A DNA stretch of 26,494 bases, taken from IMG/VR virus record IMGVR_UViG_3300045988_034764; one strand, given 5' to 3'. Below are positions 1,733 through 23,243 of the stretch, piece by piece. Source of the stretch: a virus (lineage: Duplodnaviria; Heunggongvirae; Uroviricota; Caudoviricetes). Within the stretch, counting starts at the first letter, position 1; each line of letters begins with the position of its first letter. Both the position numbers and the translations under genes were made by a program. The notes beneath the pieces were generated by a model. That model did no database searches and was not told the DNA's origin. It worked only from the letters and a program-made list of their open reading frames with translations.

Positions 1733-1764
1733 TTGCAGACACCAATATAATAGGGTACTATTCA
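1733..1764 (+). promoter_or_regulatory. sigma70-like promoter with embedded operator motif, driving the transporter/DpdA cassette
   Basis: TTGCAG (1733-1738), 17-bp spacer, TACTAT (1756-1761); internal TATAAT (1746-1751); core TATAATAGGGTACTATTCA is one copy of the recurrent 19-bp motif. Confidence 0.45.
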
Positions 1765-8541: not shown

Positions 8542-8574
8542 CTTCTCTACTCCGTTCTCGTTGTCGATGGAGTA

Positions 8575-8603
8575 AATATAATTGGTGTAAGAGTAATAGT
8601 CAA
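8575..8603 (-). promoter_or_regulatory. sigma70-like promoter for the small-gene array
   Basis: On minus strand TTGACT (8598-8603), 17-bp spacer, TATATT (8575-8580); about 30 nt upstream of the first ORF. Confidence 0.4.
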
Positions 8604-8624
8604 CTAGTCATAGCAGAAAATAGA

Positions 8625-8657
8625 TAAAAAAAATCCCGGCTGGGTCAGGGCCGGGAT
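8625..8657 (-). terminator. Intrinsic terminator after the lysis cassette
   Basis: 8-bp stem ATCCCGGC/GCCGGGAT with 9-nt loop, followed on the minus strand by T8. Confidence 0.6.
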
Positions 8658-8721
8658 AAAACTGGAGAGTAGAGGGATGGAACAGGAGGTGATTTAAGTA
8701 TCGTCGGATTAGTCTTAGGTG

Positions 8722-9210: not shown

Positions 9211-9460
9211 GCTTATGTCCTCCGTATGACAGCCACGCCTGACGAATCTGACGCAGCGCAACTAATGTGATTAATGTCTCAGGCAGCGTAGGCGACATGC
9301 TGCCCTGTAGCAGGTGGATACATCCGGCGGCGCAGACGATAGCGGTCAGGATATAGAGCACCCGACCAAATAGTCCGTCATCCACGCTGGGATGATATAC
9401 ATTAAACAGCGATGTGCCCCCTATTGCCAGCATACCGCCGAACCAGAATAACTCATTCAT
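9188..9460 (-). CDS. Lysis-associated membrane protein (holin/antiholin-like, 2 TM)
   Basis: Start moved to ATG with GAGGAGG SD; two hydrophobic helices; overlaps endolysin start by 23 nt. Confidence 0.5.
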   Translation of the reverse strand: MNELFWFGGMLAIGGTSLFNVYHPSVDDGLFGRVLYILTAIVCAAGCIHLLQGSMSPTLPETLITLVALRQIRQAWLSYGGHKRVSKHFR

Positions 9461-9761
9461 CTGGGCCTCCTCGACGTGGGATGTATTCTCCGGCGACGAT
9501 ACCGGAGAGACGGGAATAGATAGGCATCCAGAGAACCGCGATGATGAAGCCCAGGCCCGCGATTTCACGGTCGCCCGTGATACCGAACCATTGAGCCGCG
9601 AGAGGTGCGCCAAATACGGCGCAGGTGAAGCCAGTTGCAATAAAGCAGAAGCCGTCGATAGGGCCAGAAATAACGGACTTATGTTGTCGTAGTCCGATGA
9701 CCCCTCCGGCGAGTGCGGCAGCGAGAAGCCAGCCTGTCACTGTTTCAGTAAATTTATCCAA
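9453..9761 (-). CDS. Holin-like membrane protein (about 3 TM)
   Basis: 102 aa; TTG start with GGAGGA SD 6 nt upstream; hydrophobic helices and charged C-terminus; immediately upstream of the lysis genes. Confidence 0.5.
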   Translation of the reverse strand: MDKFTETVTGWLLAAALAGGVIGLRQHKSVISGPIDGFCFIATGFTCAVFGAPLAAQWFGITGDREIAGLGFIIAVLWMPIYSRLSGIVAGEYIPRRGGPDE

Positions 9762-9820
9762 GATGAATCCTCCAGGTGCGTATTAAGTATGCAGTAACTG
9801 GAGGATACCACGGGTAGGAA

Positions 9821-10261
9821 TTATCCTAATAGTTGTTTGGTAATAATCTTGCCGCCGGTGTTAGTGTCAAACTTCGATGCAACGGCTACACCGCCATGTG
9901 CTGAATATTCACATTCCATGGCCGCCAGTGCGTAGGGAGAACCGGAACCAACGGCGGCAAAGCTATCGGCAATCGGAATAACCGAACTAAGTGCGCAATC
10001 CCACGATTTATAAAACGAGACTTTATACACCTTTTCTGTGTCTTTCACGAATACCAGAGCTTCGAAATCAAAATCATAGTGCTTTGCCTGAAGAATATCA
10101 GGGCAATCGATAAGCATAGCCCCTACCCCCGCATCGCCCGCTACCCCGATAACAGCAAAATCATTCTCATATATCTTTGTGTCTGTGTTGTAACAGTTAC
10201 TTCCGCACACAACACGTGTATCGCAGGCCATTGTCTTTCCATCAAACGCGATTGTAGTCAT
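9821..10261 (-). CDS. HslV-like / proteasome beta-type Ntn-hydrolase peptidase
   Basis: 146 aa; N-terminal MTTIAF (Thr nucleophile after Met removal) and VGSGSPYALAAM resembling HslV IGSGGPYAQAAA; GGAGG SD. Confidence 0.6.
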   Translation of the reverse strand: MTTIAFDGKTMACDTRVVCGSNCYNTDTKIYENDFAVIGVAGDAGVGAMLIDCPDILQAKHYDFDFEALVFVKDTEKVYKVSFYKSWDCALSSVIPIADSFAAVGSGSPYALAAMECEYSAHGGVAVASKFDTNTGGKIITKQLLG

Positions 10262-10551
10262 TTGTGCCTCCAGATGTATTGGCGTCTCTGCGGTTTCGTC
10301 GGAATATCATCGTATCCCAGCGATTTCCAGTAATTAAATAGCCGATTAGCGATAGCGGCGCGTTCCTGTGTTTTAAACTCACCGAGATTAACGGCCTTCC
10401 CGTTCTGGAATCCGCAGTCGCGGACAGCTTTACGTCTGGCCTGAATCTCAGGGTACAGCGCGTTACCCCGACGCTTGTATATCTGTGTTTTAGCTCTCGG
10501 TGACAGCGGCACAAGGCCGCTACGTTTCAGGATGTCAGTTGCAAGGCTCAT
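10258..10551 (-). CDS. Hypothetical basic protein (97 aa)
   Basis: ATG with AGGAGA SD; ATGA overlap with HslV-like gene. Confidence 0.5.
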   Translation of the reverse strand: MSLATDILKRSGLVPLSPRAKTQIYKRRGNALYPEIQARRKAVRDCGFQNGKAVNLGEFKTQERAAIANRLFNYWKSLGYDDIPTKPQRRQYIWRHK

Positions 10552-10769
10552 CACTTCTCCTGTTTACCAAGTCGCTTAGGTGAGCAGATAGCTCGTACCT
10601 CTGAATCGTTGGGCTTGTCACCCTGAAACAGGAAGTGCGCGTTCTCTGCGGCGCGTGCCGCTGACTGGCACGCCTCCATCGAGTAAAACGTTTCTGCTGC
10701 CGCTAGTTGCATCTGACCCGCGGACAGCACCCAGATAAATAAGATGCTGGTCATCTCTTTAGCCCGCAT
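10551..10769 (-). CDS. Small secreted protein (signal-peptide-like N-terminus)
   Basis: 72 aa; positive n-region, hydrophobic core, AAA-E cleavage-like site; alternative start at 10754. Confidence 0.45.
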   Translation of the reverse strand: MRAKEMTSILFIWVLSAGQMQLAAAETFYSMEACQSAARAAENAHFLFQGDKPNDSEVRAICSPKRLGKQEK

Positions 10770-11374
10770 TTAATGCACATACGTGGAAACCCGACTCCGT
10801 AAAATTGCCATTCGTGTTCACACTCTGGCTTGACTACACGGTAGCGGGTAATGTCACCACGCCATCCGCGATGGTCCCAGCGCAGCTCCCCCGCTACTCC
10901 AGGTTCACATGCACTGGTCCCGTCACGCATCCTGATTTGTACAATAGTATCTTTCGGCACCGGACACTCACCACCTTCCCACTTAACCCACGGTTCCGTG
11001 ATATGCGCATCCTCTTTACGGCAGCCAGATCGCTCGGGGACAAGCGCACCCTTGCGCGCAAGTTTGTACGCCTCTGCATCACCGGTAGCGGTAGCCAGTC
11101 GTTTTACCAGGTCATCAACTTGCGCTTGAAAGCGCAACGCGTCATTACGATATGCGGACGATTGCCCGGTCATATGTGATATGTGCTCGGATTTCCTAAT
11201 GTTGTCTTCCTGCAACTCCTTAATCTGCGCCGACGCATCACGTAACTGATTCTTAAGTGACAGCACCTCATGCGCCAGGTCTTCGCACTGTTGCTTGTGC
11301 ACCTTACGTTCGTCCAGTGTTAGGTGCATTGCCGCTACCAAGTACTCGAATACTTCGTTTTTGTTACTCATCAT
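10751..11374 (-). CDS. Coiled-coil protein with Cys-rich C-terminal domain (hypothetical)
   Basis: 207 aa from ATG (track start is TTG at 11377); N-terminal heptad-like region; C-terminal C-x-H...C-x2-C cluster. Confidence 0.55.
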   Translation of the reverse strand: MMSNKNEVFEYLVAAMHLTLDERKVHKQQCEDLAHEVLSLKNQLRDASAQIKELQEDNIRKSEHISHMTGQSSAYRNDALRFQAQVDDLVKRLATATGDAEAYKLARKGALVPERSGCRKEDAHITEPWVKWEGGECPVPKDTIVQIRMRDGTSACEPGVAGELRWDHRGWRGDITRYRVVKPECEHEWQFYGVGFPRMCIKCGLKR

Positions 11375-11483
11375 CAACCCCCATTGTTATCGCTTTAGTG
11401 TCGCCGTCGCACACAGAAGTGCTACCCATTATTTCGTAAGCATCTACCAGTTCGCCTAAGGTCCAGCTACCGTACCAACCCAT
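11364..11483 (-). CDS. Hypothetical small protein (39 aa), not in ORF track
   Basis: ATG with AGGAGA SD about 30 nt downstream of a promoter copy; coordinates approximate. Confidence 0.3.
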   Translation of the reverse strand: MGWYGSWTLGELVDAYEIMGSTSVCDGDTKAITMGVDDE

Positions 11484-11509
11484 CTTCTGTCTCTCCTCTC
11501 GTTTGTGTA

Positions 11510-11545
11510 AATGAATAGTAGCCTATTCTATTTTAGTGTGCAAGT
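11510..11545 (-). promoter_or_regulatory. sigma70-like promoter with operator motif (copy A)
   Basis: On minus strand TTGCAC, 17-bp spacer, TACTAT; core TGAATAGTAGCCTATTCTA; positions approximate (+/- 3 nt). Confidence 0.4.
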
Positions 11546-11550
11546 AAATT

Positions 11551-11724
11551 TTATCGGTGTGTTATAGAGTCGATGAACGCCAGTAACTCGCGCTCCGCTT
11601 CTGCTTCTCTTTCCTCAAGCGACCAGGTAGCGGATTCCTCTGTTGCCGTCGCTAAATCTGTTTTTACATCAATCATCGTATCTATTAACGCGATTAGTCG
11701 TTCAGCCTGTTCTTTAGTAATCAT
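11551..11724 (-). CDS. Hypothetical acidic small protein (57 aa), not in ORF track
   Basis: ATG with GGGAGA SD; preferred over the overlapping low-complexity plus-strand ORF 11573-11785 because all neighbours are minus-strand. Confidence 0.35.
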   Translation of the reverse strand: MITKEQAERLIALIDTMIDVKTDLATATEESATWSLEEREAEAERELLAFIDSITHR

Positions 11725-11848
11725 TGTTGCATCTCCCGCAATAGTCGCTTCGATTGTTGCGTTTGGTGAAATAGAACAAAAATGAGAAAAATGATACGCT
11801 GCTGTGTAGCAGCGTAAGTCACTCAGTAAAATCCCAAACTATTGAACA

Positions 11849-12052
11849 TCACACTTCCGGCGGCCCAGGTAACGGCATCCAGTGGGAAAACACTTCCTGC
11901 TCTAATTCCCCGTAGTCAGCACGGAAATCACACCAAGTTACCCCATCCCACTCGTACACATTGTTCTGGACCACACCACCCATACTACTGACGACCAAAA
12001 CTGGTTGGCCCGGCTCCGGCATCCGCTCACTACACTTAATCCACTCTCCCAT
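11849..12052 (-). CDS. DUF551-like phage protein
   Basis: 67 aa; pattern WIKCSERMPEPGQPVLV...HWMPLPGPP typical of DUF551 proteins. Confidence 0.6.
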   Translation of the reverse strand: MGEWIKCSERMPEPGQPVLVVSSMGGVVQNNVYEWDGVTWCDFRADYGELEQEVFSHWMPLPGPPEV

Positions 12053-12055
12053 ATC

Positions 12056-12199
12056 TCACCTCTGATTCGCGATAAACAACACACCAGCTTTCCACGCCCG
12101 CCACGCGAGACGCGTCTTAACGTTCAGGTACTCTTTCTTCGAACCCTTGTTAACCGGCAGACCCTCAACGACGGCCCATCGTTCGAATGCTTCTCTCAT
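12056..12199 (-). CDS. Hypothetical small protein (47 aa), not in ORF track
   Basis: Exactly fills the gap between two flanking genes in frame with an ATG; weak SD. Confidence 0.3.
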   Translation of the reverse strand: MREAFERWAVVEGLPVNKGSKKEYLNVKTRLAWRAWKAGVLFIANQR

Positions 12200-12202
12200 A
12201 CC

Positions 12203-12451
12203 TTAGTCCTCATCGTCGTTCTCTCTTCCTAGATATGAAAGAGATGTAATCGCGGCAGCGGTAAATCCATCACAATCAATCATACGTTTAAGTTTCTCCG
12301 CATCCTCCTGCGATTTTATTCGGAAACATAGTTGTGCTACCCCCGCCACCGAAGACCTGCCACCCTCTGATACGGCGTTATAGTGATAAACATATATATA
12401 TATTTCATACCAACCCCCAAAACGCGCGCACCACATAGACGTCACTGACAA
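12203..12451 (-). CDS. Hypothetical protein (82 aa; start uncertain)
   Basis: Track ORF with TTG start; contains a (TA)n microsatellite translated as YEIYIYVY; coding status uncertain. Confidence 0.3.
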   Translation of the reverse strand: MSVTSMWCARFGGWYEIYIYVYHYNAVSEGGRSSVAGVAQLCFRIKSQEDAEKLKRMIDCDGFTAAAITSLSYLGRENDDED

Positions 12452-12462
12452 TTAAAATAAAC

Positions 12463-12756
12463 TTATCCACGGCAACCTCCCTCAGAGTCGTCGGCACTGG
12501 CATCATGATTCGATGCCGTTCGCATAAACAGCTTACCTTTGCGCTGTAACAAATCCATCGTCACCGCACCAGCCCCTGACTTATTAGGGCGGCGCATTAG
12601 ACTAAAATTCCACACCCTGGCCTTTGTTACATCCCGGGCGTTACACACCCACAAAGCACCATTTTCTCTCAGGTCCAGCAAATCAGAAATGTTTAAATTA
12701 TTTACCGGGATAAACCCACTAATGAACTGGCGTTCGCATTGCGGTAATTCTTCCAT
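12463..12756 (-). CDS. Hypothetical protein (97 aa)
   Basis: ATG one codon after the track GTG start; first sizeable gene downstream of promoter copy B. Confidence 0.5.
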   Translation of the reverse strand: MEELPQCERQFISGFIPVNNLNISDLLDLRENGALWVCNARDVTKARVWNFSLMRRPNKSGAGAVTMDLLQRKGKLFMRTASNHDASADDSEGGCRG

Positions 12757-12972
12757 CACTTCGCCCCTTTGAATTTAAAATTGTTGCCGATGAGTTTTAT
12801 CCCGTCCTCCCGGACCCATAAATCGAAACACCATTCTGGATGCGCGAGATAGCATAACCCAGGAACTTAATTCGAAACTCGTTTAATTATTGCGTAATGT
12901 CCGCCGCGTTTCGTTTTCACCAACTGACCCTTCTTAAACATAACCCTCACTCCTCTGTCTCGTTTCGATAAG

Positions 12973-13006
12973 TGAATAGTATCCTATTATATTGGGGTGT
13001 GCAAGA
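12973..13006 (-). promoter_or_regulatory. sigma70-like promoter with operator motif (copy B)
   Basis: On minus strand TTGCAC (12999-13004), 17-bp spacer, TACTAT (12976-12981); core TGAATAGTATCCTATTATA at 12973-12991. Confidence 0.45.
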
Positions 13007-13362
13007 GAATAGTTACGTTGCCGTTGTGATTCTTTCGTTTCTTAAAAGAGTACGCAACGCAGTGGGTGGGCGTTAGCCCACCCCAGCGGAGTGAAGTACT
13101 CTCTACCTTGTTTACGGCAATTATAGAAACTTTTAATTATCAGTGACTTGGGTATTTAGGCGGGATTAACAATAGACTTTGGCCCTTCCGAAAGCGCCAG
13201 CGGAACTACACTCAAGTGCCTAATGGCACGCGTTGCGTTCCCTGCCGCTCCGCGGTCGCTTGCGATATCTCACAAGCTCAGTGAAGCTTAGCATATTTTT
13301 AAGTAAAAGTCAATACCAGTAGCATCTTTTGTATCTTAGTAACTTTGTGTGGCGTTTTGGTT

Positions 13363-13391
13363 GCTTTTACATTCCCGCTATCCTATACTCA
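13363..13391 (+). promoter_or_regulatory. sigma70-like promoter for the plus-strand replication module
   Basis: TTGCTT, 17-bp spacer, TATACT, about 30 nt upstream of the ATG at 13421. Confidence 0.4.
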
Positions 13392-13420
13392 GCTTCACCA
13401 AACAAACAGGAGATATAAAA

Positions 13421-13603
13421 ATGCAGCATTACATGACCCAGAATGAAGTAGCAGAACGTATCGGGGTGACCCGTCAGACAATTAATAACTGGTTGCGCAG
13501 TGGTAAATTCCCGGATTGCTGTATTAAGGTTATGGGCCGCCGTTTACCGGGTACATTTGACCGTAATAAAGTTGAAGCGTGGATTAAGGAGAACGTGAAA
13601 TGA
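13421..13603 (+). CDS. AlpA/excisionase-type helix-turn-helix DNA-binding protein
   Basis: Start moved to ATG with AGGAG SD (track start lies inside the promoter); MTQNEVAERIGVTRQTINNWLRSGKFP matches the AlpA-family HTH pattern. Confidence 0.7.
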   Translation: MQHYMTQNEVAERIGVTRQTINNWLRSGKFPDCCIKVMGRRLPGTFDRNKVEAWIKENVK

Positions 13604-13890
13604 AAGGTGTAATATTCCATGATAAAGAGAACGACAATTCTTATATGGTCTATTTAGTGCAAGGCAAGTACGCGTTGTGTTTTAACGTTTCTTGTAAGCT
13701 GGACTCTTATTCGCCGTTTTGCGTTACAGAAGAATTGCAGTTGATTAGTCTCCGAAGACTCAGCACAATGTCGGCCTCCATTGATGTCTCTGACCACTTA
13801 TCGTACGTTTATCAGTATTTCGGCGATGAGATTGTCGTAGATTATTATCGTAAGTACGCACATTTGATGGAATGCCTGGCCAATAGATAA
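13600..13890 (+). CDS. Hypothetical protein (96 aa)
   Basis: ATGA overlap with upstream gene; no recognisable motif. Confidence 0.55.
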   Translation: MKGVIFHDKENDNSYMVYLVQGKYALCFNVSCKLDSYSPFCVTEELQLISLRRLSTMSASIDVSDHLSYVYQYFGDEIVVDYYRKYAHLMECLANR

Positions 13891-13948
13891 AAGAAAGCCC
13901 CGACGCGTGAACGCCGAGGCCAAATTACTTGCTGAAGGAATATACAAT

Positions 13949-16216
13949 ATGTCCGATGTGATTTTATCCTACTCGTGGTCCCGTCGCAACGCGCGGGCGG
14001 AGAAAAAGGATATAAACGTCAGAACCACACACACGGCAACACTGGACGACCTGAAAGGGTTAATCCAGCCGCTCGATGCTGTTCGCGGCGGGATTAACCC
14101 TAAGACCGCGCCTGGCTATATCACGGCCGCGTGCGACTCGACGCACAGCACCGTAAAAGACCCGGAAACAGGCGACTTTAAGCAAGCGCGTAAAGGCTTC
14201 TTCTACCGCTGCGACGCGTCTGTAAGCAAATCGTCGCTTGCCTATCTGGACTTTGACAGTGCAACGCCAGAGGAGTATCAGGAAGCTGTGCGCCTGGTTA
14301 AGCGCAGCCGCCGGGCAATGTGCATTTACACCACGGCATCACATACCGACGAGTCACCGCGCTTTCGCGTCGTCATGCCTCTGGGCCGCCCGGTCGAAGG
14401 TGGTGACATCATCCGTGTTCGTCATGGATTGCTGGAACACTTCTTCAAGGGCATGGGTGCTGACCGCAGTGGGTTCACCCTGTCGCAGCCGATGTACCTG
14501 CCACCGGTTGGCTCTACGGTTATCTGGTCTCGCCGCAACGACCTGATTGACCCGTACGAGTTGCTTGAAGGTATCCCCGCCGTCGACGTTAGCAGCGCAT
14601 CCGACTACCAGATACCGGAAGAACTGCGCACTGCGTTTACTGATGCGTTCGAGGCACTGGCCTTCGAGTATGGCGGTGTCATGACGCCACGCGGCCTGAA
14701 GATGCCCGCTACACCAGAACACGCCGAAAACTACAGCGACCCTACCCCGCGCCCGGACGACTTCCTGCTGTGCTTCCCGCGAGAGGGGTACGAAGCGCCA
14801 AACGTGACCATGATTCACGACACCGACATTACGGCGACCGAAGGCATGTCGCCGAAAGAGGTGTGGAAATACGCTTGCGATGCGACCGGGATGCCATTCA
14901 GTGAAGTCGCAGAGGCCATCGGTTGGGGTGCGCGAGAATCTGTTTCATGCAGCCTGGACGACCTGGAAGACGATGAGGACTCAGAGGAGGACGAGTTACC
15001 GGAACCGGTAAAGGCGGATTTCGTCGTTGAAGGGTACATGCCGTCAGATTGTATCTGGGATATTGTCGGGGAATCTGGCACGTACAAATCGTTCTATACG
15101 CTGGGGATGATGTACCTGAGCGCCGCCGGATACCGGTTTGCGGGGGCGGATACTCAGCGCTGCCACCATTTCTATATCGACGGTGAGGGCGGCGCAGCCA
15201 CACGTACGCGTATTGATGCACTAGCGGCTAAATATGGTGAGGAAGGTAAAGATTATGTACATGTCATCGACATGGGCGAAGTCGGAAAACTGAAAAGCCT
15301 TATTAAGTTGATGCGTGAAACTGCTGGTGACGAACCCATCGGTATGGTCGCGTTTGATACCCTTAACCAGACGCTGGCGCTGACGATTGATAAGTTCGAC
15401 GAGAACAGTTCATCAACGGCAATCGGCATGGGTAAAGTTATCGCCATCCTGAAAGAAGTACGTGACGCGACTAAAGCTGCAGTGGGCGTCGTCCACCACA
15501 CACCGAAGGGTGGAAAGAAAGCCCGCGGCAGTGGGGCGCTGTATGCGGGCGTCGACGTGGAACTGACAATTGAACGCGCTACCGACCGTCAGATAAACGT
15601 ATACCACTCTAAATTCAAACACGGCCCACAACAAAAAACTGTCGGCATGGTGCTTGAGTCGGTACAGTTCCGTGAAGCGCCACCCCCGAAAGAGTACCGC
15701 GCGGTTGAGTTCCTGGGTAGCACAGAGGAATACGGCACAATCGTTAACCTGGACCTGCCTGAGCCGCACAAGGCGCTTGTTCTGATGCCGTGGGGTTTCG
15801 AGCCGTTCAAAACTGACGAGGAGAAAGAGCGCGAAGAAGGTCTGACAAAGGAAGGTAAAGAAAACGTACGTAAAACCGTAGAGAACGCTGTCAACAGTTC
15901 AGAGGCCACGATACTCGCAGCGTTCGAACTGGCGGAAGGAACCTACAACGGCAACGAAGGCATCACGGTAGCCGCAGCGAATAAGCTGGCACAGTCTGAC
16001 CCCAACGCAAAGGCGTTTAACTCCAAAGAAGCCATAGAACGCGGGAAGATTAAGAAAATGGTTGAGGCCGGGTATCTTGTTCCGGGGACTGACGAAAACA
16101 ATCAGATAATACCAGGCCGTTACAGACTGAATACCCGAATAACTGATAACAAGATTCCTAAGACAATATACGAACCGAATGAAATGCTGACAGTGACAGA
16201 GGAAGATTTGGAATAG
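13949..16216 (+). CDS. DNA primase / helicase (primase-polymerase-like N-terminus fused to RecA-like ATPase)
   Basis: Start moved to ATG with GAAGGA SD (track start is GTG at 13907); N-terminal LDFD AEP-like motif; Walker A GESGTYKS, Walker B VAFDTL. Confidence 0.7.
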   Translation: MSDVILSYSWSRRNARAEKKDINVRTTHTATLDDLKGLIQPLDAVRGGINPKTAPGYITAACDSTHSTVKDPETGDFKQARKGFFYRCDASVSKSSLAYLDFDSATPEEYQEAVRLVKRSRRAMCIYTTASHTDESPRFRVVMPLGRPVEGGDIIRVRHGLLEHFFKGMGADRSGFTLSQPMYLPPVGSTVIWSRRNDLIDPYELLEGIPAVDVSSASDYQIPEELRTAFTDAFEALAFEYGGVMTPRGLKMPATPEHAENYSDPTPRPDDFLLCFPREGYEAPNVTMIHDTDITATEGMSPKEVWKYACDATGMPFSEVAEAIGWGARESVSCSLDDLEDDEDSEEDELPEPVKADFVVEGYMPSDCIWDIVGESGTYKSFYTLGMMYLSAAGYRFAGADTQRCHHFYIDGEGGAATRTRIDALAAKYGEEGKDYVHVIDMGEVGKLKSLIKLMRETAGDEPIGMVAFDTLNQTLALTIDKFDENSSSTAIGMGKVIAILKEVRDATKAAVGVVHHTPKGGKKARGSGALYAGVDVELTIERATDRQINVYHSKFKHGPQQKTVGMVLESVQFREAPPPKEYRAVEFLGSTEEYGTIVNLDLPEPHKALVLMPWGFEPFKTDEEKEREEGLTKEGKENVRKTVENAVNSSEATILAAFELAEGTYNGNEGITVAAANKLAQSDPNAKAFNSKEAIERGKIKKMVEAGYLVPGTDENNQIIPGRYRLNTRITDNKIPKTIYEPNEMLTVTEEDLE

Positions 16217-16250
16217 GTAAAAAAAAAAAGGGGGGGGGGCGTTAAGCCCC
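16217..16250 (-). terminator. Homopolymer-containing terminator between convergent genes
   Basis: A11 (16219-16229) then G10 (16230-16239); on the minus strand GGGGC-loop-GCCCC followed by C-run and T11, directly after the XRE gene stop. Confidence 0.4.
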
Positions 16251-16457
16251 TTCACCGAACGCCAGCCACTTGGCGTCTACTTCCAGCACTTCCGCCAGTT
16301 TAAACAGCGTCGCCGGGCGGACGTCCTGAGTTACGCCGAGCGCAAGCTGGTTAATCGCACCCTGGGAAACGCCGGCCAGAACAGCCAGACGGCGCTGTGA
16401 GATGCCGAGTTCTTTACGGCGTTGTTCTACACGGATGCCTAGTTCAGATGGTTGCAT
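16242..16457 (-). CDS. XRE-family (Cro/CI-type) helix-turn-helix transcriptional regulator
   Basis: 71 aa; ELGISQRRLAVLAGVSQGAINQLALG is a classic XRE HTH; AAGGAG SD; antisense to surrounding genes. Confidence 0.75.
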   Translation of the reverse strand: MQPSELGIRVEQRRKELGISQRRLAVLAGVSQGAINQLALGVTQDVRPATLFKLAEVLEVDAKWLAFGEGA

Positions 16458-16484
16458 GTCAATTACTCCTTAGTTAGTTGATAT

Positions 16485-16552
16485 GTGAATAGTACCATAT
16501 TAATTATTTTAGAAAAGCCCATTGACATCGTGAATAGTTAGCTATTATAGTT
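16485..16552. promoter_or_regulatory. Divergent promoter/operator switch region (copies D and E of the motif)
   Basis: Plus strand: TTGACA (16522-16527) + 17-18 bp + TTATAG/TATAGT with TGAATAGTTAGCTATTATA in the spacer; minus strand: TACTAT -10 (16489-16494) facing the XRE gene. Confidence 0.5.
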
Positions 16553-16582
16553 AGCCCATACCAAACGAGAGGAGAGAAACAA

Positions 16583-17083
16583 ATGTTAGAGAAATTCTTA
16601 GCATTACTGGAACGTTTCGTAGTTGCTCATGAACTGATTGCTGCGAACAGCGCGAAACAAGTTGTTCAGGTTTCCGCGCCGCTGGAAGTAGAGACGGTAG
16701 CGTATGCCAAAGAAGCGGTAGCCGAGTGCGCTGAAGAAGAAACAAAAGAAATCCCGGTTGAAGGTGAAGACATCGTCGACACTAAACCGGCAGAAGAAGA
16801 GAAGCCGAAACGCAAGCCGCGGAAAGCTAAAGTAGAGGAACCAACACCGGAGCCGGAAGAAGAGAAGGAAGAAGTTGATTACCAGTCTCTGCGTGACCAG
16901 ATTCAGGCTATCGACGATGCGATTAACGAAGGTCCGAGCGATGCCGCGTGCGATGACTCCGATGAACTGCTGGAAGAGTTCACCGGTAAGAAAATGAAGA
17001 TTGCCGCGATTAAAGACGAAGACCTGGCTGAATACCTGAAACGCCTGACGGCAATCAAGAACAAGTATTTCGAAGAAGAATAA
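16583..17083 (+). CDS. Highly acidic protein (hypothetical; possible DNA mimic)
   Basis: 166 aa very rich in E/D with one basic patch KPKRKPRKAK; first gene after a strong promoter; GAGAGGAGAG SD. Confidence 0.55.
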   Translation: MLEKFLALLERFVVAHELIAANSAKQVVQVSAPLEVETVAYAKEAVAECAEEETKEIPVEGEDIVDTKPAEEEKPKRKPRKAKVEEPTPEPEEEKEEVDYQSLRDQIQAIDDAINEGPSDAACDDSDELLEEFTGKKMKIAAIKDEDLAEYLKRLTAIKNKYFEEE

Positions 17084-17088
17084 CTATC

Positions 17089-17113
17089 TTGCGGCCTTCG
17101 GGCCGCTTTAACT
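17089..17113 (+). terminator. Hairpin (GCGGCC-TTCG-GGCCGC) with weak T tract
   Basis: 6-bp GC stem with UUCG-type loop followed by TTTAAC, 6 nt after the acidic protein stop. Confidence 0.35.
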
Positions 17114-17126
17114 GAGGGTCGGAATT

Positions 17127-17462
17127 ATGAAATACGAAAATTTAACAGACATAGAAATTAATGCACGCGTCAGCCGCGCGTTATACGGCGATGTCTCACG
17201 AGGACATCAGATGGCATTAGCTTCTGGAGTAGTAGATTATTGTAATCGGATAGAGGACGCGTGGCCTGTTATCACCGGTAACAATATCTCGATTGTAGCT
17301 ACAGATTTAGAATGGATTGCTTTACCGGATAATGCGGTTATTGACGGTATTACCGGAGACGCAACCAGTATGATTTACGTAGACGACTCATGTGTTATCG
17401 GTACAAATCCTCTACGCGCAGCAATGATTGTCTTTCTTAAAATGCAGGAGGCCAAGAAATGA
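17127..17462 (+). CDS. Hypothetical protein (111 aa)
   Basis: Track ORF; ATGA overlap with the next gene. Confidence 0.55.
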   Translation: MKYENLTDIEINARVSRALYGDVSRGHQMALASGVVDYCNRIEDAWPVITGNNISIVATDLEWIALPDNAVIDGITGDATSMIYVDDSCVIGTNPLRAAMIVFLKMQEAKK

Positions 17463-17731
17463 TTTACCAACTCTACCGAGCCGTAGACAGGCGGGATAAC
17501 ACCGAGGCGCTATGGCTGTTGCGTGCACCATCCGGCGCGCACCAGATGGGAGAGATGGCGTACTTAGGCAAAGTGCCGCACCCTAAAGATATAGGCCGTC
17601 ACGTGTCACAGATTAAGCGCACGACTTTCGCCAAACCTGACTTTTATGTCTTCGAGTCGATGTATGGGTGGGCTATGCACTGCGAACATAAGACTCGGCA
17701 TTTAATTGACCAGTGGGAGAACAGGGTATGA
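17459..17731 (+). CDS. Hypothetical protein (90 aa)
   Basis: Track ORF; ATGA overlaps on both sides. Confidence 0.55.
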   Translation: MIYQLYRAVDRRDNTEALWLLRAPSGAHQMGEMAYLGKVPHPKDIGRHVSQIKRTTFAKPDFYVFESMYGWAMHCEHKTRHLIDQWENRV

Positions 17732-18969
17732 TTTTAAAGGAACGCGGCGGCAATAATGATGTGCACGCCTTACTGTCACCGTCGGGTGCTAAAAAGTGGC
17801 TGACGTGCAGTGCATCGCTAGCCTGTGAAAAAGATATTCCTAACACGTCCGGTAAAGCAGCCGTATTAGGCACCGCCATGCACACCATAGCCGAGATGCA
17901 CCTTAACCAGTACATCAAAGGCACGGCGCTGCCGTTAGAGCGTGAAGTCGGCGCTTACGTGCTGGATGAGGGTAAAGGTCAGATTAAGGCGTTAATCAGC
18001 CCGATGAAGGGCGCTGTACTGATTACGGCTGACATGATTGAGCAGGTGCGCAAGTACACCGACTATTGCAAACCGATTATCGACGTAGCGACTTACGCCA
18101 AACTTGAGATGCGCGTCAATCTTACTGAGGTATTGCATCCTGGCTATGAAGGCGTTGAGACGTTCGGAACCGCTGACCTCGTTGCCGTGCAGGAACTGGC
18201 GAACACAGACGAGCACATGCTCATTATCGGCGACCTGAAAACAGGACGGCATCGTGTTGAAGCGAAAGAAAACAAACAGCTTATGCTTTACGCTCTCGGT
18301 GTCTATCGCCGACTCAAGAGACGCTATAACATCACCGTGGTTCGTCTGGTCATCTTCCAGCCGTATGCTGGCGGTGCGTCGGAGTGGGACATCTCGGTTG
18401 AAGGTCTGGAACTGTTCGCTAAGTTCGCACAGAAACGTGCACTTTTAGCGCTAGACGCGTATTTCCGCGGCAAGAAGAACCTGAAAGCGTCGGACTTCAG
18501 GCCGTCGGTCGATGGTTGCCAGTGGTGCCGGTTCTCTGAACAATGCGCCGCGCGTACAAAGACGGTTAATTCTGTACTGGCGGAAGAACTGGAGGACGAC
18601 TTTGCGCTGGAACTGACACCGGAGCAACTTGTAGCCGAATATGAGAAGTTGCCGTTGTTGCGCCAGCACATCGATAAGGTTGAGAAAGCGATGGCAGCTG
18701 CGTTACATTCCGGTAAGAAAGTGCCAGGGTACAAGTTGGTTGAAGGTCGTCCTGGTAACCGTGCGTGGAAAGATACCGATGCGGTATTCGAGAAGTACGG
18801 TACTATGCTGCAAAAGGTAGTTCTCATGACGCCGACCGAAGCGGTTAAAGTTGTGCCGGAAGAAGAACTGAAAGACTTCATTACCCGTAAGCCCGGAGCA
18901 CCGTGCGTCGCAACGGCAGACGACAAACGTCCTGAGTGGAATCAGGCAACCGAGGAGGATTTAGAATGA
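17728..18969 (+). CDS. Cas4-like / DUF2800-type PD-(D/E)XK exonuclease
   Basis: Start moved to ATG overlapping the upstream stop; motifs DLVAV...IGDLKTG and C-terminal CQWCRFSEQC cysteine cluster. Confidence 0.7.
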   Translation: MILKERGGNNDVHALLSPSGAKKWLTCSASLACEKDIPNTSGKAAVLGTAMHTIAEMHLNQYIKGTALPLEREVGAYVLDEGKGQIKALISPMKGAVLITADMIEQVRKYTDYCKPIIDVATYAKLEMRVNLTEVLHPGYEGVETFGTADLVAVQELANTDEHMLIIGDLKTGRHRVEAKENKQLMLYALGVYRRLKRRYNITVVRLVIFQPYAGGASEWDISVEGLELFAKFAQKRALLALDAYFRGKKNLKASDFRPSVDGCQWCRFSEQCAARTKTVNSVLAEELEDDFALELTPEQLVAEYEKLPLLRQHIDKVEKAMAAALHSGKKVPGYKLVEGRPGNRAWKDTDAVFEKYGTMLQKVVLMTPTEAVKVVPEEELKDFITRKPGAPCVATADDKRPEWNQATEEDLE

Positions 18970-19124
18970 TTCGTAAAATCGTGTATTGGGCTTTATTATC
19001 ACCATTGGTAGTTATATCTGCTTTTACTTCATCTATTGCTTGGATAGATTGTAAGTTTAGAGGTAGTCAACCCATAGAACGCTATGTTCATTGGTGTGAG
19101 AAAGTTTCTAAAATTAAGCGTTGA
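18966..19124 (+). CDS. Small membrane protein (52 aa)
   Basis: ATGA overlap with upstream stop; one hydrophobic helix. Confidence 0.4.
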   Translation: MIRKIVYWALLSPLVVISAFTSSIAWIDCKFRGSQPIERYVHWCEKVSKIKR

Positions 19125-19150
19125 CACCTGAATAGTTAGCTATTATATTT
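19121..19150 (+). promoter_or_regulatory. sigma70-like promoter with operator motif (copy F) upstream of the SSB-like gene
   Basis: TTGACA (19121-19126), 17-bp spacer, TATATT (19144-19149); spacer holds TGAATAGTTAGCTATTATA, identical to 16531-16549. Confidence 0.5.
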
Positions 19151-19202
19151 CTAATCACTGGCCGGGCAGTTCCCGGAGTAAACTTAAAAGCGAGAAATCA
19201 AG

Positions 19203-19829
19203 ATGGGTATTAAACTGAATCTGCGTAAAGTAAACACTGCATGGGTTAACGTATTCGAACGCGAAAAAGACCGTGAAAACGATGATGGTTCAATCACTAA
19301 GGGGCAGTACAGCGCAACTATCATCCTGCCGTCTGACCATGCTCAAATCGATGCACTCTATGACACTGTTTACGCCGTAGTTGAAGAAGCGTTAGGTGCA
19401 GCCGCCGCCGATAAGTGGATGAAGTCCAACTACGGCGAAGGTAAGCACATGGATAAATGTGCGATTAAGGACATTGCCGAGCGTGACAATCCGTTTGAAG
19501 ACTTCCCGGAAGGCTTCTACTTCAAAGCGAAAGCACAGAAACAGCCTCTGATTGTAACCTCTAAAAAAGGCGAGACTCAGGTAGAGCAGGATTTCAATGT
19601 AGACGGCGAACAGATTGAAGGTGAACAGGTTTACAGCGGCTGCGTCGCTAACGTAAGCGTTGAAATCTGGTTCAGCCAGAAATACAAAGTTCTCGGTGTT
19701 AACCTGCTGGCAATTAAATACGTCGGAGAAGGTAAAGCGTTCGGTGGTTCTAAAGTCGCTGCGAGTGTCGATGACCTGGAAGACGACGAAGAAGATGGAG
19801 CACCGCGCCGCGAACGTCGCCGCCGCTAA
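19203..19829 (+). CDS. DUF2815-like single-stranded DNA-binding protein
   Basis: 208 aa with acidic DDLEDDEEDG tail typical of SSBs; sits between the Cas4-like nuclease and the polymerase. Confidence 0.55.
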   Translation: MGIKLNLRKVNTAWVNVFEREKDRENDDGSITKGQYSATIILPSDHAQIDALYDTVYAVVEEALGAAAADKWMKSNYGEGKHMDKCAIKDIAERDNPFEDFPEGFYFKAKAQKQPLIVTSKKGETQVEQDFNVDGEQIEGEQVYSGCVANVSVEIWFSQKYKVLGVNLLAIKYVGEGKAFGGSKVAASVDDLEDDEEDGAPRRERRRR

Positions 19830-19848
19830 TATCTGAATCAATTTAACT

Positions 19849-19872
19849 AAGGCCCTTCATTGGGCCTTTTTA
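19849..19872 (+). terminator. Intrinsic terminator or attenuator before the polymerase gene
   Basis: AAGGCCC-TTCATT-GGGCCTT hairpin followed by TTTTAC. Confidence 0.5.
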
Positions 19873-19890
19873 CTAAGGGTCGAAAATAAT

Positions 19891-22089
19891 ATGCCTAATT
19901 TATTGTATCTGGATACTGAAACATTCTCTGAAGCTGACCTAAAGAAAGTAGGGTCATACGCGTACGCGGAACACGCAACAACTGAGATTATAATATGCAC
20001 ATACGCCATTGATGACGGGCCTGTAGAAGTATGGGACTGCACTTCCGAACCAGTAATGCCGATAAACCTCCGCGTTGCGCTCCGTAATGTTATGCGCGGA
20101 CGTATGAGAATCGTAGGCCATAACTTTTTAATGTTCGACAGACTAGTTATGAAGCACTGTTGGGGGGTGGATATCAAACCAAGAAATACCATCGACACTA
20201 TGATTCGGGCGTTTCGTCACGCGTTGCCGGGGTCACTTGATGCGCTGTGTGAAGTGCTTGGCGTGTCCGCCGACAATGCGAAAGACAAACGAGGTAAAGC
20301 GCTGATTCAGCGTTTTTCTAAACCGACACCGAAGAACTACAAAATTCGCCGCTACACCGCAGAAACGCACCCAGACGAGTGGGCGTTATTCATCAAGTAC
20401 GCCGTGAGCGACATTACTGCGATGCGTGAAGTCTTTCATAAGCTGCCGCGTTGGGGTAACTCGGAGTTTGAGGACCGTGTACTTGAACTTGACCAATTAA
20501 TCAACGACCGTGGGTTTAAGGTTGACGTAGCGCTGGCAGAAGCCGCGATTGAAGCCGTGGAGAAGCACAAGGCACAGTTACAGGAAGAAGCCCAACTAAA
20601 ATACGGCGGCTCGCTTACTGGTAAGGACTTTCTGCCGATTCTGCGTGAACTCGCACCCGCGCACCGCATCCACAATGCGCAGAAGTCGACGCTGAATGAC
20701 CTGCTGGCGGATGATGATTTACCGGACGACGCCCGCACGATTATCGAAATGCGCCTCGGTGCCGCATCCACGGCATCAACGAAATATAACCCGCTGCTGT
20801 TAGGCCGCTCGTCTGACGACCGCCGTCGTGGTTGTTTACAGTACGGCGGGGCAAAACGGACTCTGCGATGGGCGGGTAAAGGCTTCCAGCCGCAGAACCT
20901 CGCGCGCGGGTACTATCACGATGATGAACTGGATAAAGGCATTTCTGCGCTACTTAAGGGCCGTGCTCATCGCCGTTTCGACGTAGCCAAGCTAACGGCA
21001 TCGACGGTTCGTAGCTGCATCATACCGGAAGCTGGGCATAAATTTGTCGTCGCCGATTACTCTAACGTTGAGGGTCGTGGGCTTGCGTGGCTGGCTGGTG
21101 AAGAAACCGCGCTTGATACGTTCCGCGCCGGACTGGATATTTATTGCGTAACCGCGGGTAAGATGTTTGGCATGGATCCCGACGATATTAAGAAAAACTT
21201 CAAGGAAATCAGACAGATAGGTAAGGCCTGCGAACTGGGCCTCGGCTATGAGGGTGGCGTCGGAGCGTTCGTTACGTTCGCTAAAAACTTAGGCCTCGAC
21301 CTTATTGAGATGGCTAAAACAATGGATGGTACATTCCCTGACCACATATGGGCCGCTACCGCACGGGGTTATGAGTGGGCGCGTATCCAGGAAGCAAAGC
21401 GACCGCCGCATCCTGGTGAAAAGGACGACCGACCGTCGTATATTCTGGATAAGAAAGTGTGGCGTACCTGCGACGCTATCAAGCGCATGTGGCGCGAGTC
21501 GCACCCGGAAACAGTAGCGTTCTGGCGCGACCTTAAAGACGGAATTTTAGCCGCTGTAAGAAATCCTGGTCGTGAATTTTGGGCGGGGGCGCATCTGCGC
21601 AAGAATGGCGAGCGCGCTATCCGAATCTGGAGAACAGTAGAAACCGATTCATCCGGTAGGAAGGTTCCTGGTTGGTGGTTGTGTATGGAGTTGCCGTCAG
21701 GCCGCATCCTTTCGTACCCTGGAATCGGCGTTAGCGTGACAAAAGAAACAGACGAAGACGGACGGGTAAACACGAATGTGCGAATCAAGTATCAGGGCGA
21801 AAACCAGTTAACCCGCCAATGGACTACCTTATACACCCACGGCGGTAAAGCATGTGAAAACATTGTCCAGGCGCTGTGCCGTGATTTACTGGCGTATGCG
21901 ATGCTTAACGTTGAGCGTGGCGGATATCCTATCGTGCTTTCGGTACACGATGAACTGGTATGCGAAACTCCAGATACCCCTGAGTACACGGTGGCCGAAC
22001 TGGAGAAATTAATGTGCGCGTTGCCAGAGTGGGCAGAAGGCTTCCCTCTTGTAGCGGAAGGGCAGGAGTTAAAACGCTATGCTAAGTAA
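19891..22089 (+). CDS. DNA polymerase, family A (Pol I-like) with 3'-5' exonuclease domain
   Basis: 732 aa; N-terminal Exo I motif YLDTETFS; polymerase-type motifs in the C-terminal half. Confidence 0.85.
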   Translation: MPNLLYLDTETFSEADLKKVGSYAYAEHATTEIIICTYAIDDGPVEVWDCTSEPVMPINLRVALRNVMRGRMRIVGHNFLMFDRLVMKHCWGVDIKPRNTIDTMIRAFRHALPGSLDALCEVLGVSADNAKDKRGKALIQRFSKPTPKNYKIRRYTAETHPDEWALFIKYAVSDITAMREVFHKLPRWGNSEFEDRVLELDQLINDRGFKVDVALAEAAIEAVEKHKAQLQEEAQLKYGGSLTGKDFLPILRELAPAHRIHNAQKSTLNDLLADDDLPDDARTIIEMRLGAASTASTKYNPLLLGRSSDDRRRGCLQYGGAKRTLRWAGKGFQPQNLARGYYHDDELDKGISALLKGRAHRRFDVAKLTASTVRSCIIPEAGHKFVVADYSNVEGRGLAWLAGEETALDTFRAGLDIYCVTAGKMFGMDPDDIKKNFKEIRQIGKACELGLGYEGGVGAFVTFAKNLGLDLIEMAKTMDGTFPDHIWAATARGYEWARIQEAKRPPHPGEKDDRPSYILDKKVWRTCDAIKRMWRESHPETVAFWRDLKDGILAAVRNPGREFWAGAHLRKNGERAIRIWRTVETDSSGRKVPGWWLCMELPSGRILSYPGIGVSVTKETDEDGRVNTNVRIKYQGENQLTRQWTTLYTHGGKACENIVQALCRDLLAYAMLNVERGGYPIVLSVHDELVCETPDTPEYTVAELEKLMCALPEWAEGFPLVAEGQELKRYAK

Positions 22090-22210
22090 ACTGATTATCG
22101 CGGTACTGGCGGGATTTGCCGCCGGTGTGTACTGTCACGAGGGCCAATACGGCATGATGGTCGCCGTATTGGGTATGTTCATCGCAATTTATCTGTGGGT
22201 GCTGGAATGA
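22079..22210 (+). CDS. Small membrane peptide (43 aa), not in ORF track
   Basis: ATG overlapping the polymerase stop; fully hydrophobic; AGGAG about 10 nt upstream. Confidence 0.3.
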   Translation: MLSKLIIAVLAGFAAGVYCHEGQYGMMVAVLGMFIAIYLWVLE

Positions 22211-22296
22211 AAATTTACTGGTTCTACGAAGAAGACTGCCGAATCTGTCCGCGCTGCGGTATTGAGCATACAAAACGTGAGGGGTGCGTATTATGA
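22207..22296 (+). CDS. Small CxxC...CxxC zinc-ribbon-like peptide (29 aa), not in ORF track
   Basis: ATGA overlap at both ends; CRICPRCG motif. Confidence 0.25.
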   Translation: MKIYWFYEEDCRICPRCGIEHTKREGCVL

Positions 22297-22445
22297 TGAT
22301 GTTTGTATTTGGGGCAGTCGTAACCATGCTCGCACTGTTGCTCGGTGCGGGAATAGCCGCGATGTTCTGTTATGGCCTGTTCTTTCAGTTTGTCGGTGTT
22401 GCCGTTCTAGGAGGGGCTTTCATTACCTGGATTCTGCGGTCATGA
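22293..22445 (+). CDS. Small membrane protein (50 aa), not in ORF track
   Basis: GAGGGG SD; two hydrophobic helices; stop overlaps the VRR-NUC start; the same-region track frame is Arg/Cys-rich junk. Confidence 0.35.
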   Translation: MMMFVFGAVVTMLALLLGAGIAAMFCYGLFFQFVGVAVLGGAFITWILRS

Positions 22446-22738
22446 CTAAAGAGGGTCGCGTGCAGAAATACGCGAAAGAGAGGTTCGAGGCCCTGGGGGG
22501 CCTCGTTCGCAAGCTCTCCTACGAAGGACGTTCCGGTGCTCCCGACCTGCTGGTAATTCTCCCCGACGGCATCATCTGGTTCGTCGAGGTTAAGAAAGAC
22601 GAAAACACGAAGCCCGACCCGCACCAGCTACGCGAGCACGAGCGGATGCGTAAACGCGGCGCGAATGTTTTTGTCGTTGGTTCGTTTAAACAGGTTGACA
22701 CCCTAATAGCGGACTATTATAGTAAACACATACCCTAA
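22442..22738 (+). CDS. VRR-NUC domain nuclease
   Basis: Start moved to internal ATG (98 aa); PD-(D/E)XK-type motif PDLLVI...FVEVK typical of VRR-NUC. Confidence 0.7.
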   Translation: MTKEGRVQKYAKERFEALGGLVRKLSYEGRSGAPDLLVILPDGIIWFVEVKKDENTKPDPHQLREHERMRKRGANVFVVGSFKQVDTLIADYYSKHIP

Positions 22739-22757
22739 CAATATAAGGAATTATGAA

Positions 22758-23012
22758 ATGACTATCGAACTTCAACTGTCAGTAAACACCATGATTCTCT
22801 GTTCAATCGATTCATCTGTTCGCATCGGTAAATACACAGGGGCGTCAGTTAATTACTCATGGTCTATGAAGGTTTCGGAAGTAAACCGTATCCTGGGTTT
22901 CGGGTCAGTTGGCCGCAAAGTGCTTGCGGAAGACGTCGCTAAAGGGCTGTCTGTAGACTTCACAACGGCTGGAGAACTTATTAAGCAAGTTCAAGCCGAA
23001 TTATCTAACTAA
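22758..23012 (+). CDS. Hypothetical protein (84 aa)
   Basis: Track ORF with AAGGA SD. Confidence 0.55.
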   Translation: MTIELQLSVNTMILCSIDSSVRIGKYTGASVNYSWSMKVSEVNRILGFGSVGRKVLAEDVAKGLSVDFTTAGELIKQVQAELSN

Positions 23013-23051
23013 TACAGGCCCTTCGGGGCCTTAACTATAAGGAATTGAGAA

Positions 23052-23243
23052 ATGAAACACGAATATGACCGCAAACCAGCACGTGACATCGTACCGGGTG
23101 ACATGATTTTCAACGTTAAGACACGTCGTCCTGTCGCCGTTGATACGGTGTACGTCGAGTCGAACGGTAAACTGGTTATCGAAGATGTAACCGGTAACGT
23201 TACGGCGTTCGGGCGTAAAGAGTTAGTTCTGGTGGCGAAATGA
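23052..23243 (+). CDS. Hypothetical protein (63 aa)
   Basis: Track ORF with AAGGA SD; ATGA overlap with the next gene. Confidence 0.55.
   Translation: MKHEYDRKPARDIVPGDMIFNVKTRRPVAVDTVYVESNGKLVIEDVTGNVTAFGRKELVLVAK

Follow-up and report, generated by a model that had tools for sequence, protein, structure and literature searches.

Small Cro-like repressors and sets of operators dispersed around a phage genome have both been described before. Here we examine a locus that may combine the two: a 71-aa XRE-family regulator gene, and a short palindrome repeated across a 26,494-nt stretch of viral DNA (IMG/VR record IMGVR_UViG_3300045988_034764), which we call, at its full length, the window. The window comes from a Kagunavirus (subfamily Guernseyvirinae), a virulent siphophage of Escherichia coli. 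A search with positions 15500-17500, which include the XRE gene, found 446 phage records with nucleotide identities of 80-95%. The best match reached ~94%, the top matches were the Kagunavirus Escherichia phages fEg-Eco06, phiEc3, K1H and K1ind, and many matches from Salmonella phages belonged to Jerseyvirus, also in the Guernseyvirinae. Phages of these two genera are ~41-45-kb siphophages regarded in the literature as strictly lytic. They rank among the phages most frequently isolated and put forward for therapy and for the biocontrol of E. coli and Salmonella in food, and their genome papers ignore the XRE gene or state that there is no repressor. GenBank records name the product a transcriptional repressor, Cro or DicA, an annotation that is itself not new; the Jerseyvirus literature lists a core 'XRE family regulator', and one paper lists a DicA-like repressor and then says that no repressor is present.

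One of the described systems to which the locus comes closest is that of phage 434. 434 Cro shares with the XRE protein a five-helix XRE fold, a length of 71 aa and ~40% identity in structural alignment. As with 434 Cro, and with the P22/lambdoid Cro/CI N-terminal domains, the presumed target is a 14-bp two-arm palindrome lying over core promoters. The gene also adjoins a divergent promoter region and, in Cornellvirus and the Serratia phage Otaku, comes before replication genes as Cro does; its presumed role, that of turning down early promoters in lytic growth, is the same too. Unlike the 434 system, this one has neither a CI partner nor a tripartite OR, and there is no lysogeny. The half-sites are different as well (AATAG with a 4-bp centre here, ACAA with a 6-bp centre in 434), and the candidate operators are dispersed over 7-9 promoters, whereas those of 434 are concentrated at OR and OL.

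Dispersed operators are known from P1 C1 and mycobacteriophage L5 gp71, each a single small repressor that acts at a dozen or so sites genome-wide and on many transcription units. Both are maintenance repressors of temperate phages with asymmetric sites (17-bp in P1, 13-bp in L5), and the L5 stoperators act within transcription units; here, in contrast, we deal with a virulent phage whose palindromic sites each fall inside a core promoter. The restriction-modification controller (C) proteins C.AhdI, C.BclI and C.Esp1396I are small XRE-fold dimers, appear among the Foldseek structural matches of the XRE protein, and are autoregulatory timers that work at palindromic sites over their own promoter. 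They differ in serving their own operon only, through a paired OL/OR 'C-box', and in activating before they repress. Because the sites described here are single and lie over the -10 or spacer of many promoters, unlike those of C proteins, we expect only repression.

The palindrome itself has been reported once, as phage promoters. A PHIRE analysis of phage fBC-Eco01 (PMC9825357) found seven copies with the consensus tgAATAGTa-ccTATTat-T and assigned them to a phage-encoded RNA polymerase; motif and copy number are the same as in the window. That paper draws no link to XRE, to palindromic arms or to sigma-70 overlap, and these phages do not encode the polymerase to which the motif was assigned. 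Within the searchable literature we found no paper that links the motif to XRE or sees an operator inside the sigma-70 promoters, and a search for the motif string returned only noise. What is probably new here is the proposed tie between this motif and XRE, as a promoter-embedded operator set in a virulent phage family.

A dispersed palindrome in sigma-70-type promoters

The motif is a 14-bp palindrome with the core AATAG-N4-CTATT, and its 17-nt consensus is TGAATAGT-N3-CTATTA. With up to two mismatches allowed, the pattern TGAATAGTNNNMTATTA matched the window 8 times against 0.29 expected, a count reached in none of 100 shuffles. Under a position weight matrix (PWM) seven sites scored 20-32 bits and the next best 11.9 bits, the level of shuffled sequence; since the matrix was built from the same seven sites, only this gap in score is informative. 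An unbiased count in the complete phiEc3 genome gave AATAG-N4-CTATT as its most frequent 5-N-5 palindrome, and that genome holds ~9 good copies of the motif. An earlier note on this DNA, made from the sequence alone, had recorded two copies as a local feature upstream of XRE; they instead belong to a set of promoter-embedded palindromic sites numbering 7 in the window and ~9 in a complete genome.

All seven window copies (7/7) are intergenic and overlap sigma-70-type hexamers, in either orientation (Table 1), and so a single motif is both over-represented genome-wide and placed at transcription units. The three promoters of the window that match the consensus at 11/12 positions (16522, 19121 and 22695) all carry it, and their copies at 16531, 19129 and 22704 take the form TTGACA-N2-3-[T/G]AATAG-N4-CTATTATAGT. 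The copies at 1748, 11512 and 12973 run the other way, as TTGCA(C/G)-17-TACTAT with the left arm supplying the -10, and O1, the copy nearer to the XRE gene, belongs to this second class. One class has 14 nt between the -35 and the downstream arm and the other 19 nt, and the promoter-distal arm is conserved even at unidirectional promoters, whose spacers would usually be free to vary. The two registers, the two orientations and the conserved distal arm argue that the motif is a protein-binding site and not a promoter element. We rejected the symmetry of a bidirectional -10 as the cause of the palindrome, as conservation of the arms extends to unidirectional promoters and the two -10 candidates do not overlap but stand apart. 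One palindrome lies in the spacer or -10 of essentially every sigma-70-type early or middle promoter, O1 and O2 included, and the palindrome is the most likely target of the XRE protein.

Conservation among relatives points in the same direction. Across 36 IMG/VR Kagunavirus loci, the relatives to which we refer below, the arms GAATAG/CTATTA of O1, O2 and the site in the SSB promoter (19129) are essentially invariant and the central 4 nt vary freely, in six or more forms. O1 is identical in 33/36 relatives, with two of the three variants altered in the centre only; O2 combines invariant arms with six variants of its centre; and the SSB-promoter site varies in the centre alone. Invariant arms around a free centre are the footprint expected of a dimeric helix-turn-helix (HTH) operator. 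The spacing between O1 and O2 is 44 or 45 bp among the relatives, and the equivalent sites lie farther apart in Jerseyvirus and Cornellvirus, so cooperative phasing does not appear to be required.

A Cro/CI-fold regulator gene, divergent promoter candidates and overlapping operator-like repeats are conserved together in three genera. The orthologous promoters of Jerseyvirus SE2 carry TAATAG-N4-CTATTA (6 sites where 0.09 are expected), and Cornellvirus VSiP carries TATTAG-N4-GTAWTA (6 sites, 0.33 expected). The same scans found no dispersed motif in Otaku, which has only a local, intergenic TTGCA...TGCAA palindrome and is for that reason unusable as a fourth test case.

The XRE gene and its divergent promoter region

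The XRE protein matches Pfam HTH_3 over residues 11-65 (E 2.3e-12; 47.2 bits against a cut-off of 23), and its best relative by sequence in the PDB is 434 Cro (E 5e-7). An AlphaFold2 model with a predicted local distance difference test (pLDDT) value of 84 has five helices (residues 5-17, 21-28, 32-39, 48-57 and 62-66), and its top Foldseek match is 2cro, 434 Cro again (template modelling (TM) score 0.73/0.79, 40% identity). By its HTH_3 profile and its five-helix, all-alpha 434 Cro/repressor fold, the protein is a 434-Cro-type helix-turn-helix protein, which bears out the Cro/CI-type assignment in the earlier note. The ratio of nonsynonymous to synonymous polymorphism (pN/pS) is 0.043 over 33 distinct Kagunavirus alleles, a sign of strong purifying selection, and frameshifts occur in 0/36 Kagunavirus loci. 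From this conservation we judge the gene to be functional. The note had considered the gene unexpected; it occurs in 502 phage records, nearly all Guernseyvirinae-type, where it is routinely annotated.

XRE holds its place as the only minus-strand gene in the plus-strand replication block. The sole other sizeable minus-strand open reading frame (ORF) between 13.4 and 25.3 kb, at 23009-23389, has no match in a PHROG search and overlaps the methyltransferase gene. Comparison between genera suggests how XRE came to be alone. In Cornellvirus VSiP (26% identity), the related phage SaI_NFG_5577 and Otaku, a distantly related helicase-primase follows XRE in the same orientation; the Jerseyvirus helicase-primase is 58% identical to that of the window and, as in the window, convergent with XRE. 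The helicase-primase cassette has been exchanged between genera and is oppositely oriented, and because it points the other way in Kagunavirus and Jerseyvirus, XRE is left there as an 'antisense' orphan.

The XRE and acidic-protein genes are separated by 125 bp (16458-16582), which contain, as the earlier note described, two copies of the motif (TGAATAGT-N3-MTATTA, 45 bp apart). The copies are part of an 18-nt direct repeat, GTGAATAGTACCATATTA at 16485-16502 and GTGAATAGTTAGCTATTA at 16530-16547, and the exact 9-mer GTGAATAGT has 3 occurrences in the window. The strong plus-strand promoter that the note had placed here is also present as a consensus match: TTGACA at 16522-16527, invariant in the 36 relatives, is followed after 17 nt by TTATAG or after 18 nt by TATAGT, and matches to the consensus at 11/12 occur only three times in the 26.5-kb window. 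Facing XRE, the predicted minus-strand -10 TACTAT (16494-16489) is preceded by a TG at 16497-16496 that makes it an extended -10, with no good -35. The alternative candidate, TTCACG-17-TAAAAT, has a -10 that is incompletely conserved in relatives. Each minus-strand candidate is overlapped by O1 or O2, and the plus promoter by O2, so that self-repression is predicted whichever promoter serves XRE. The imperfect base of O1 is invariant in 36 genomes, apparently because this change, from C to A in the right arm, supplies the TG of the extended -10. An 8-bp inverted repeat, ATGTCAAT/ATTGACAT (16456-63 / 16521-28), varies among relatives and was dismissed as a coincidence.

With its own Shine-Dalgarno sequence and, on its own strand, a conserved hairpin followed by a T-rich run, XRE appears to be monocistronic; we infer that the hairpin and T-run act as a terminator. 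The hairpin (GGGGC-NTTAA-GCCCC, with a variable loop base) and the following TTTCTTTTT are kept in 36 relatives. In the window the run after the hairpin is expanded to C10 T11 on the minus strand, seen on the plus strand as an A11 G10 homopolymer pair at 16219-16239, between the stop codons of helicase-primase and XRE. The 36 relatives carry AAAAAGAAAGGGG at this place (A9 in one). The expansion of ~8 nt is private to the window and parts the terminator hairpin from its T-run, and is either slippage or a sequencing or assembly artefact.

The XRE gene also appears to be the target of a natural CRISPR spacer. A 35-bp stretch of it (16260-16294) is 100% identical to a spacer of a type I-E array in E. 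coli 2017.09.02CC (NZ_AP025214.2, 4038605-4038639), an array that adjoins cas1e/cas2e.

Table 1. Positions of the XRE gene, its signals, the candidate operators and promoters, and the HTH_17 gene in the window; O1 and O2 are the two sites upstream of XRE.
Feature	Position	Strand	Remarks
XRE/434-Cro-like regulator gene, 71 aa	16242..16457	-	HTH_3, 434 Cro likeness, pN/pS
XRE ribosome-binding site AAGGAG	16467..16472	-	Read from sequence; invariant in alignment of relatives
XRE terminator-like element	16219..16250	-	Hairpin GGGGC-UUAAC-GCCCC over the stop codon, then T-run; conservation, folding
Candidate XRE promoter, extended -10 TGgTACTAT	16489..16497	-	No good -35; invariant in alignment
Alternative XRE promoter candidate TTCACG-17-TAAAAT, 9/12	16506..16534	-	-35 in left arm of O2
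Candidate operator O1, TGAATAGTACCATATTA	16486..16502		Core AATAG-N4-ATATT, right arm imperfect; overlaps XRE -10; motif scan
Candidate operator O2, TGAATAGTTAGCTATTA	16531..16547		Perfect arms AATAG/CTATT; in spacer and -10 of plus promoter; motif scan
Sigma-70-type promoter TTGACA-18-TATAGT, 11/12	16522..16551	+	For acidic protein-NinX-exonuclease operon
Candidate operator	12973..12989		In bidirectional promoter core, serving divergent promoters; leftward TTGCAC-17-TACTAT (13004-12976)
Rightward promoter TCGATA-17-TATATT	12965-12993	+	Over the 12973 operator; predicted to drive HTH_17/helicase-primase operon
Candidate operator, identical to O2	19129..19145		In promoter TTGACA-17-TATATT (19121-19149) of SSB/DNA polymerase operon
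Candidate operator TAATAGCGGACTATTAT	22704..22720		In promoter TTGACA-17-TATAGT (22695-22723), upstream of methyltransferase/helicase genes
Candidate operator	11512..11528		In leftward internal promoter TTGCAC-17-TACTAT (11543-11515) of minus-strand block
Candidate operator	1748..1764		In promoter TTGCAG-17-TACTAT (1733-1761, +) of small plus-strand cassette within structural genes
Doubtful degenerate copy TGACTAGTTGACTATTA	8594..8610		Over -35 of TTGACT-17-TATATT (8603-8575, -); PWM 11.9 bits
HTH_17 (AlpA/excisionase-like) gene, 56-60 aa	13421-13603		Leading rival binder

Proposed repression by XRE and the alternatives

We consider it reasonably probable that XRE encodes a Cro-type, self-repressing global repressor of early and middle promoters in a virulent phage, and place similar trust in the XRE protein as the binder of the dispersed palindrome. 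XRE is favoured as the binder because the 14-bp two-arm geometry of the sites matches that of 434-type operators, and because XRE is common to the three genera, one of which, judged by VSiP, gives no tblastn match to HTH_17, the other small DNA-binding candidate. A 39%-identical homolog in the temperate phage CobraSix also lies in the Cro position beside sites of 14 bp. We infer binding by XRE, its dimerisation, repression through binding, and the filling of O2-type sites before O1.

After injection, host RNA polymerase would fire the near-consensus promoters, and XRE would be made from its weaker extended -10 promoter and accumulate. It would then bind, presumably as a dimer, the palindromes over the -10 or spacer, occlude RNA polymerase and turn down the replication and early operons, limiting its own synthesis through the imperfect O1. 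XRE would in this way act as a Cro-like brake or rheostat on many promoters simultaneously, not as a two-repressor, bistable lysis/lysogeny switch. The helicase-primase operon may add a double-negative loop to this scheme. It reads convergently over XRE, and read-through across the XRE gene is likely because the plus-strand hairpin after helicase-primase has no T-run; XRE would in turn repress the helicase-primase operon, which, we speculate, would relieve the read-through.

If XRE does act in this way, the subfamily would have its first regulatory map, with one Cro-type protein and one operator per promoter, and a motif earlier labelled as a phage-polymerase promoter would be explained. XRE supplied in trans should then confer immunity limited to a group among these phages, and phage engineers would gain compact, repressible parts in the consensus promoters that bear the operator. 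The result is useful for annotating the subfamily and changes no concept.

Several observations weigh against repression by XRE. The link between XRE and the motif is circumstantial, and the region of its own promoter has no surplus of operators, with one per promoter as elsewhere. Part of the arm conservation is owed to the promoter, since TATTAT in the right arm doubles as a -10. The XRE proteins of Kagunavirus and Jerseyvirus are 51% identical and differ in their recognition helices (SQGAINQ and SQSLITH), yet the two genera share the AATAG half-site; conversely, the Cornellvirus recognition helix is close to that of SE2, yet its motif is different and less symmetric. Finally, an RNA-seq time course of Kagunavirus K1B4 is not unambiguously mappable to the XRE gene.

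These points give some weight to another reading, unlikely in our judgement but worth serious attention, in which the palindrome is a real operator bound by HTH_17, by another small phage protein or by a host factor; XRE would then have its targets elsewhere, perhaps purely locally. The HTH_17 proteins of Kagunavirus and Jerseyvirus, two genera with a common motif core despite their different XRE recognition helices, are 82% identical, and HTH_17 has no tblastn match in Cornellvirus, whose motif differs. The sole gene annotated as 'early' in the Kagunavirus RNA-seq is, moreover, an HTH gene, and by gene order this is more likely to be HTH_17. The Cornellvirus result also cuts the other way, as the dispersed motif is significant at orthologous promoters there with no detectable HTH_17. 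HTH_17 travels with the exchangeable helicase-primase cassette, and most of its relatives bear annotations as excisionases or small terminase subunits; the regulator that all three genera share is XRE, and dimers of the 434-Cro type classically target a two-arm palindrome of 14 bp. As for host factors, the half-sites of the ArgR and TrpR boxes do not match.

Much less probable than binding by another protein is a genuine lambda-type lysis/lysogeny or carrier-state switch, in which XRE would silence all promoters and maintain quiescence. The earlier note had likened the layout to a lambda-type PR/PRM switch, and its predicted geometry stands: the promoter candidates are divergent, the regulator has a Cro fold and each promoter candidate has an operator-like site over it. 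The logic of a bistable switch does not. The locus has a single regulator gene and no antagonistic CI/Cro pair, for the divergent neighbour encodes an acidic protein that matches nothing in Pfam and whose PHROG family has no known function. The 71-aa XRE protein is an HTH domain only, with no CI-like partner and no C-terminal oligomerisation or self-cleavage (S24) domain, and the two operators, 44-45 bp apart and one per promoter, contrast with a tripartite OR. The note had advised looking beyond the window for integrase and partition genes; neither these nor a CI-type repressor is annotated in complete relatives. We found no prophage copies in 5,426 complete E. coli genomes or in 185,579 GTDB species representatives (one genome per species), and published Jerseyviruses form clear plaques and give no mitomycin-inducible lysogens.

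A switch does have a temperate precedent among relatives of XRE. In the temperate Enterobacter phage CobraSix a 39%-identical XRE homolog occupies the Cro position, between CI-like and CII-like genes, and the CI/Cro intergenic region (2385-2482) holds three adjacent 14-bp sites, ACAG-N6-CTGT. This array is a textbook 434-like tripartite operator beside the closest temperate XRE homolog.

Operators on every early promoter would in principle permit full silencing. With a site at every early or middle promoter and a double-negative loop, it is conceivable, although improbable, that XRE alone holds the whole genome silent in a repressor-maintained episomal carrier state with no CI, integrase or partition genes. 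One record would fit such a state. A complete Kagunavirus genome (CP088689.1), 92% identical to the window in this region, was deposited as a circular 44,086-bp 'plasmid', pC16EC0033-2, non-mobilizable and from an E. coli blood isolate; its gene content is that of an ordinary phage, with no partition genes. This lone record could reflect a carrier state or carrier culture, or contamination; no Jerseyvirus was found among plasmid records, and we found no paper tying the Guernseyvirinae to pseudolysogeny or a carrier state. Were the carrier state real, it would occur in a 'strictly lytic' family of therapy candidates, with pC16EC0033-2 as one case.

We give very little credence to the idea that XRE, left over from a temperate ancestor, is decaying and no longer has a function. 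Its orientation against its neighbours, its orphan status and the Cornellvirus and Otaku arrangement, in which, like a Cro gene, it stands first in the helicase-primase operon, would suit a relic, but the purifying selection over 33 alleles, the intact frame in 36 loci, the conserved ribosome-binding site, promoter candidate and terminator, and the carriage of the gene by ~500 genomes would not. It is just as hard to believe that the motif is a phage-specific promoter for a phage RNA polymerase or sigma-like factor and unrelated to XRE, as its listing in fBC-Eco01 implies, given that complete relatives have no annotated gene for an RNA polymerase or a sigma factor, that every copy lies within a sigma-70 -35/-10 pair at 17-18-bp spacing (three of them at 11/12), and that both orientations and two registers occur, unlike the promoters of a single-subunit polymerase.

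Gene order and neighbouring features

The window divides into a minus-strand block (184-12941), with head, portal and terminase genes and small genes, and the plus-strand replication block (13421-25340). The latter encodes, in order, the HTH_17 protein, helicase-primase, the acidic protein, NinX, a DUF2800 nuclease, an SSB-like protein, a family-A DNA polymerase, a methyltransferase and a helicase. Between the 12973 operator/promoter and the HTH_17 gene are ~430 nt with no convincing ORF (12994-13420), and inside them, near 13065-13084, is a GC-rich hairpin, GGGTGGGC-GTTA-GCCCACCC. In phiEc3 the gap before HTH_17 is of equal length, and in SE2 it is ~1 kb and holds two operator sites. An Rfam scan of the whole window gave no match; the stretch could be a long leader, a small RNA or a replication origin.

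The small plus-strand cassette is made up of three genes (1789-3147) between the portal and Mu-F-like head genes. Its products are of 52 aa, of 154 aa with a match to Pfam Vut_1 (putative vitamin uptake transporter family), and of 244 aa with no known function, and the operator-bearing promoter at 1733-1761 would drive them. phiEc3 has one small gene only at this position. The gene that comes first after the 16522 promoter also varies among relatives, with at least 4 different small ORFs inserted before the acidic-protein gene. Because the inserted ORFs differ and the promoter, operator and leader are constant, this slot (16552-16582) appears to be moron-like.

The minus-strand promoter with the degenerate copy (8575-8610) comes after a T-rich run, and its phiEc3 counterpart lies just past the endolysin gene. 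Degenerate copies in SE2 and VSiP have an equivalent context, just after a T-rich run. The promoter, at 8575-8603, may escape repression.

Several operator-bearing promoters are followed, at differing distances, by a shared leader. It reads AAACGAGAGGAG(A) at 16563-16574 and 11487-11503, with a third copy, AAACGAGACAGAGGAG, at 12952-12966, and similar leaders occur in SE2 and VSiP. This leader may serve simply as a strong ribosome-binding site, or belong to a promoter-leader module that is repeated.

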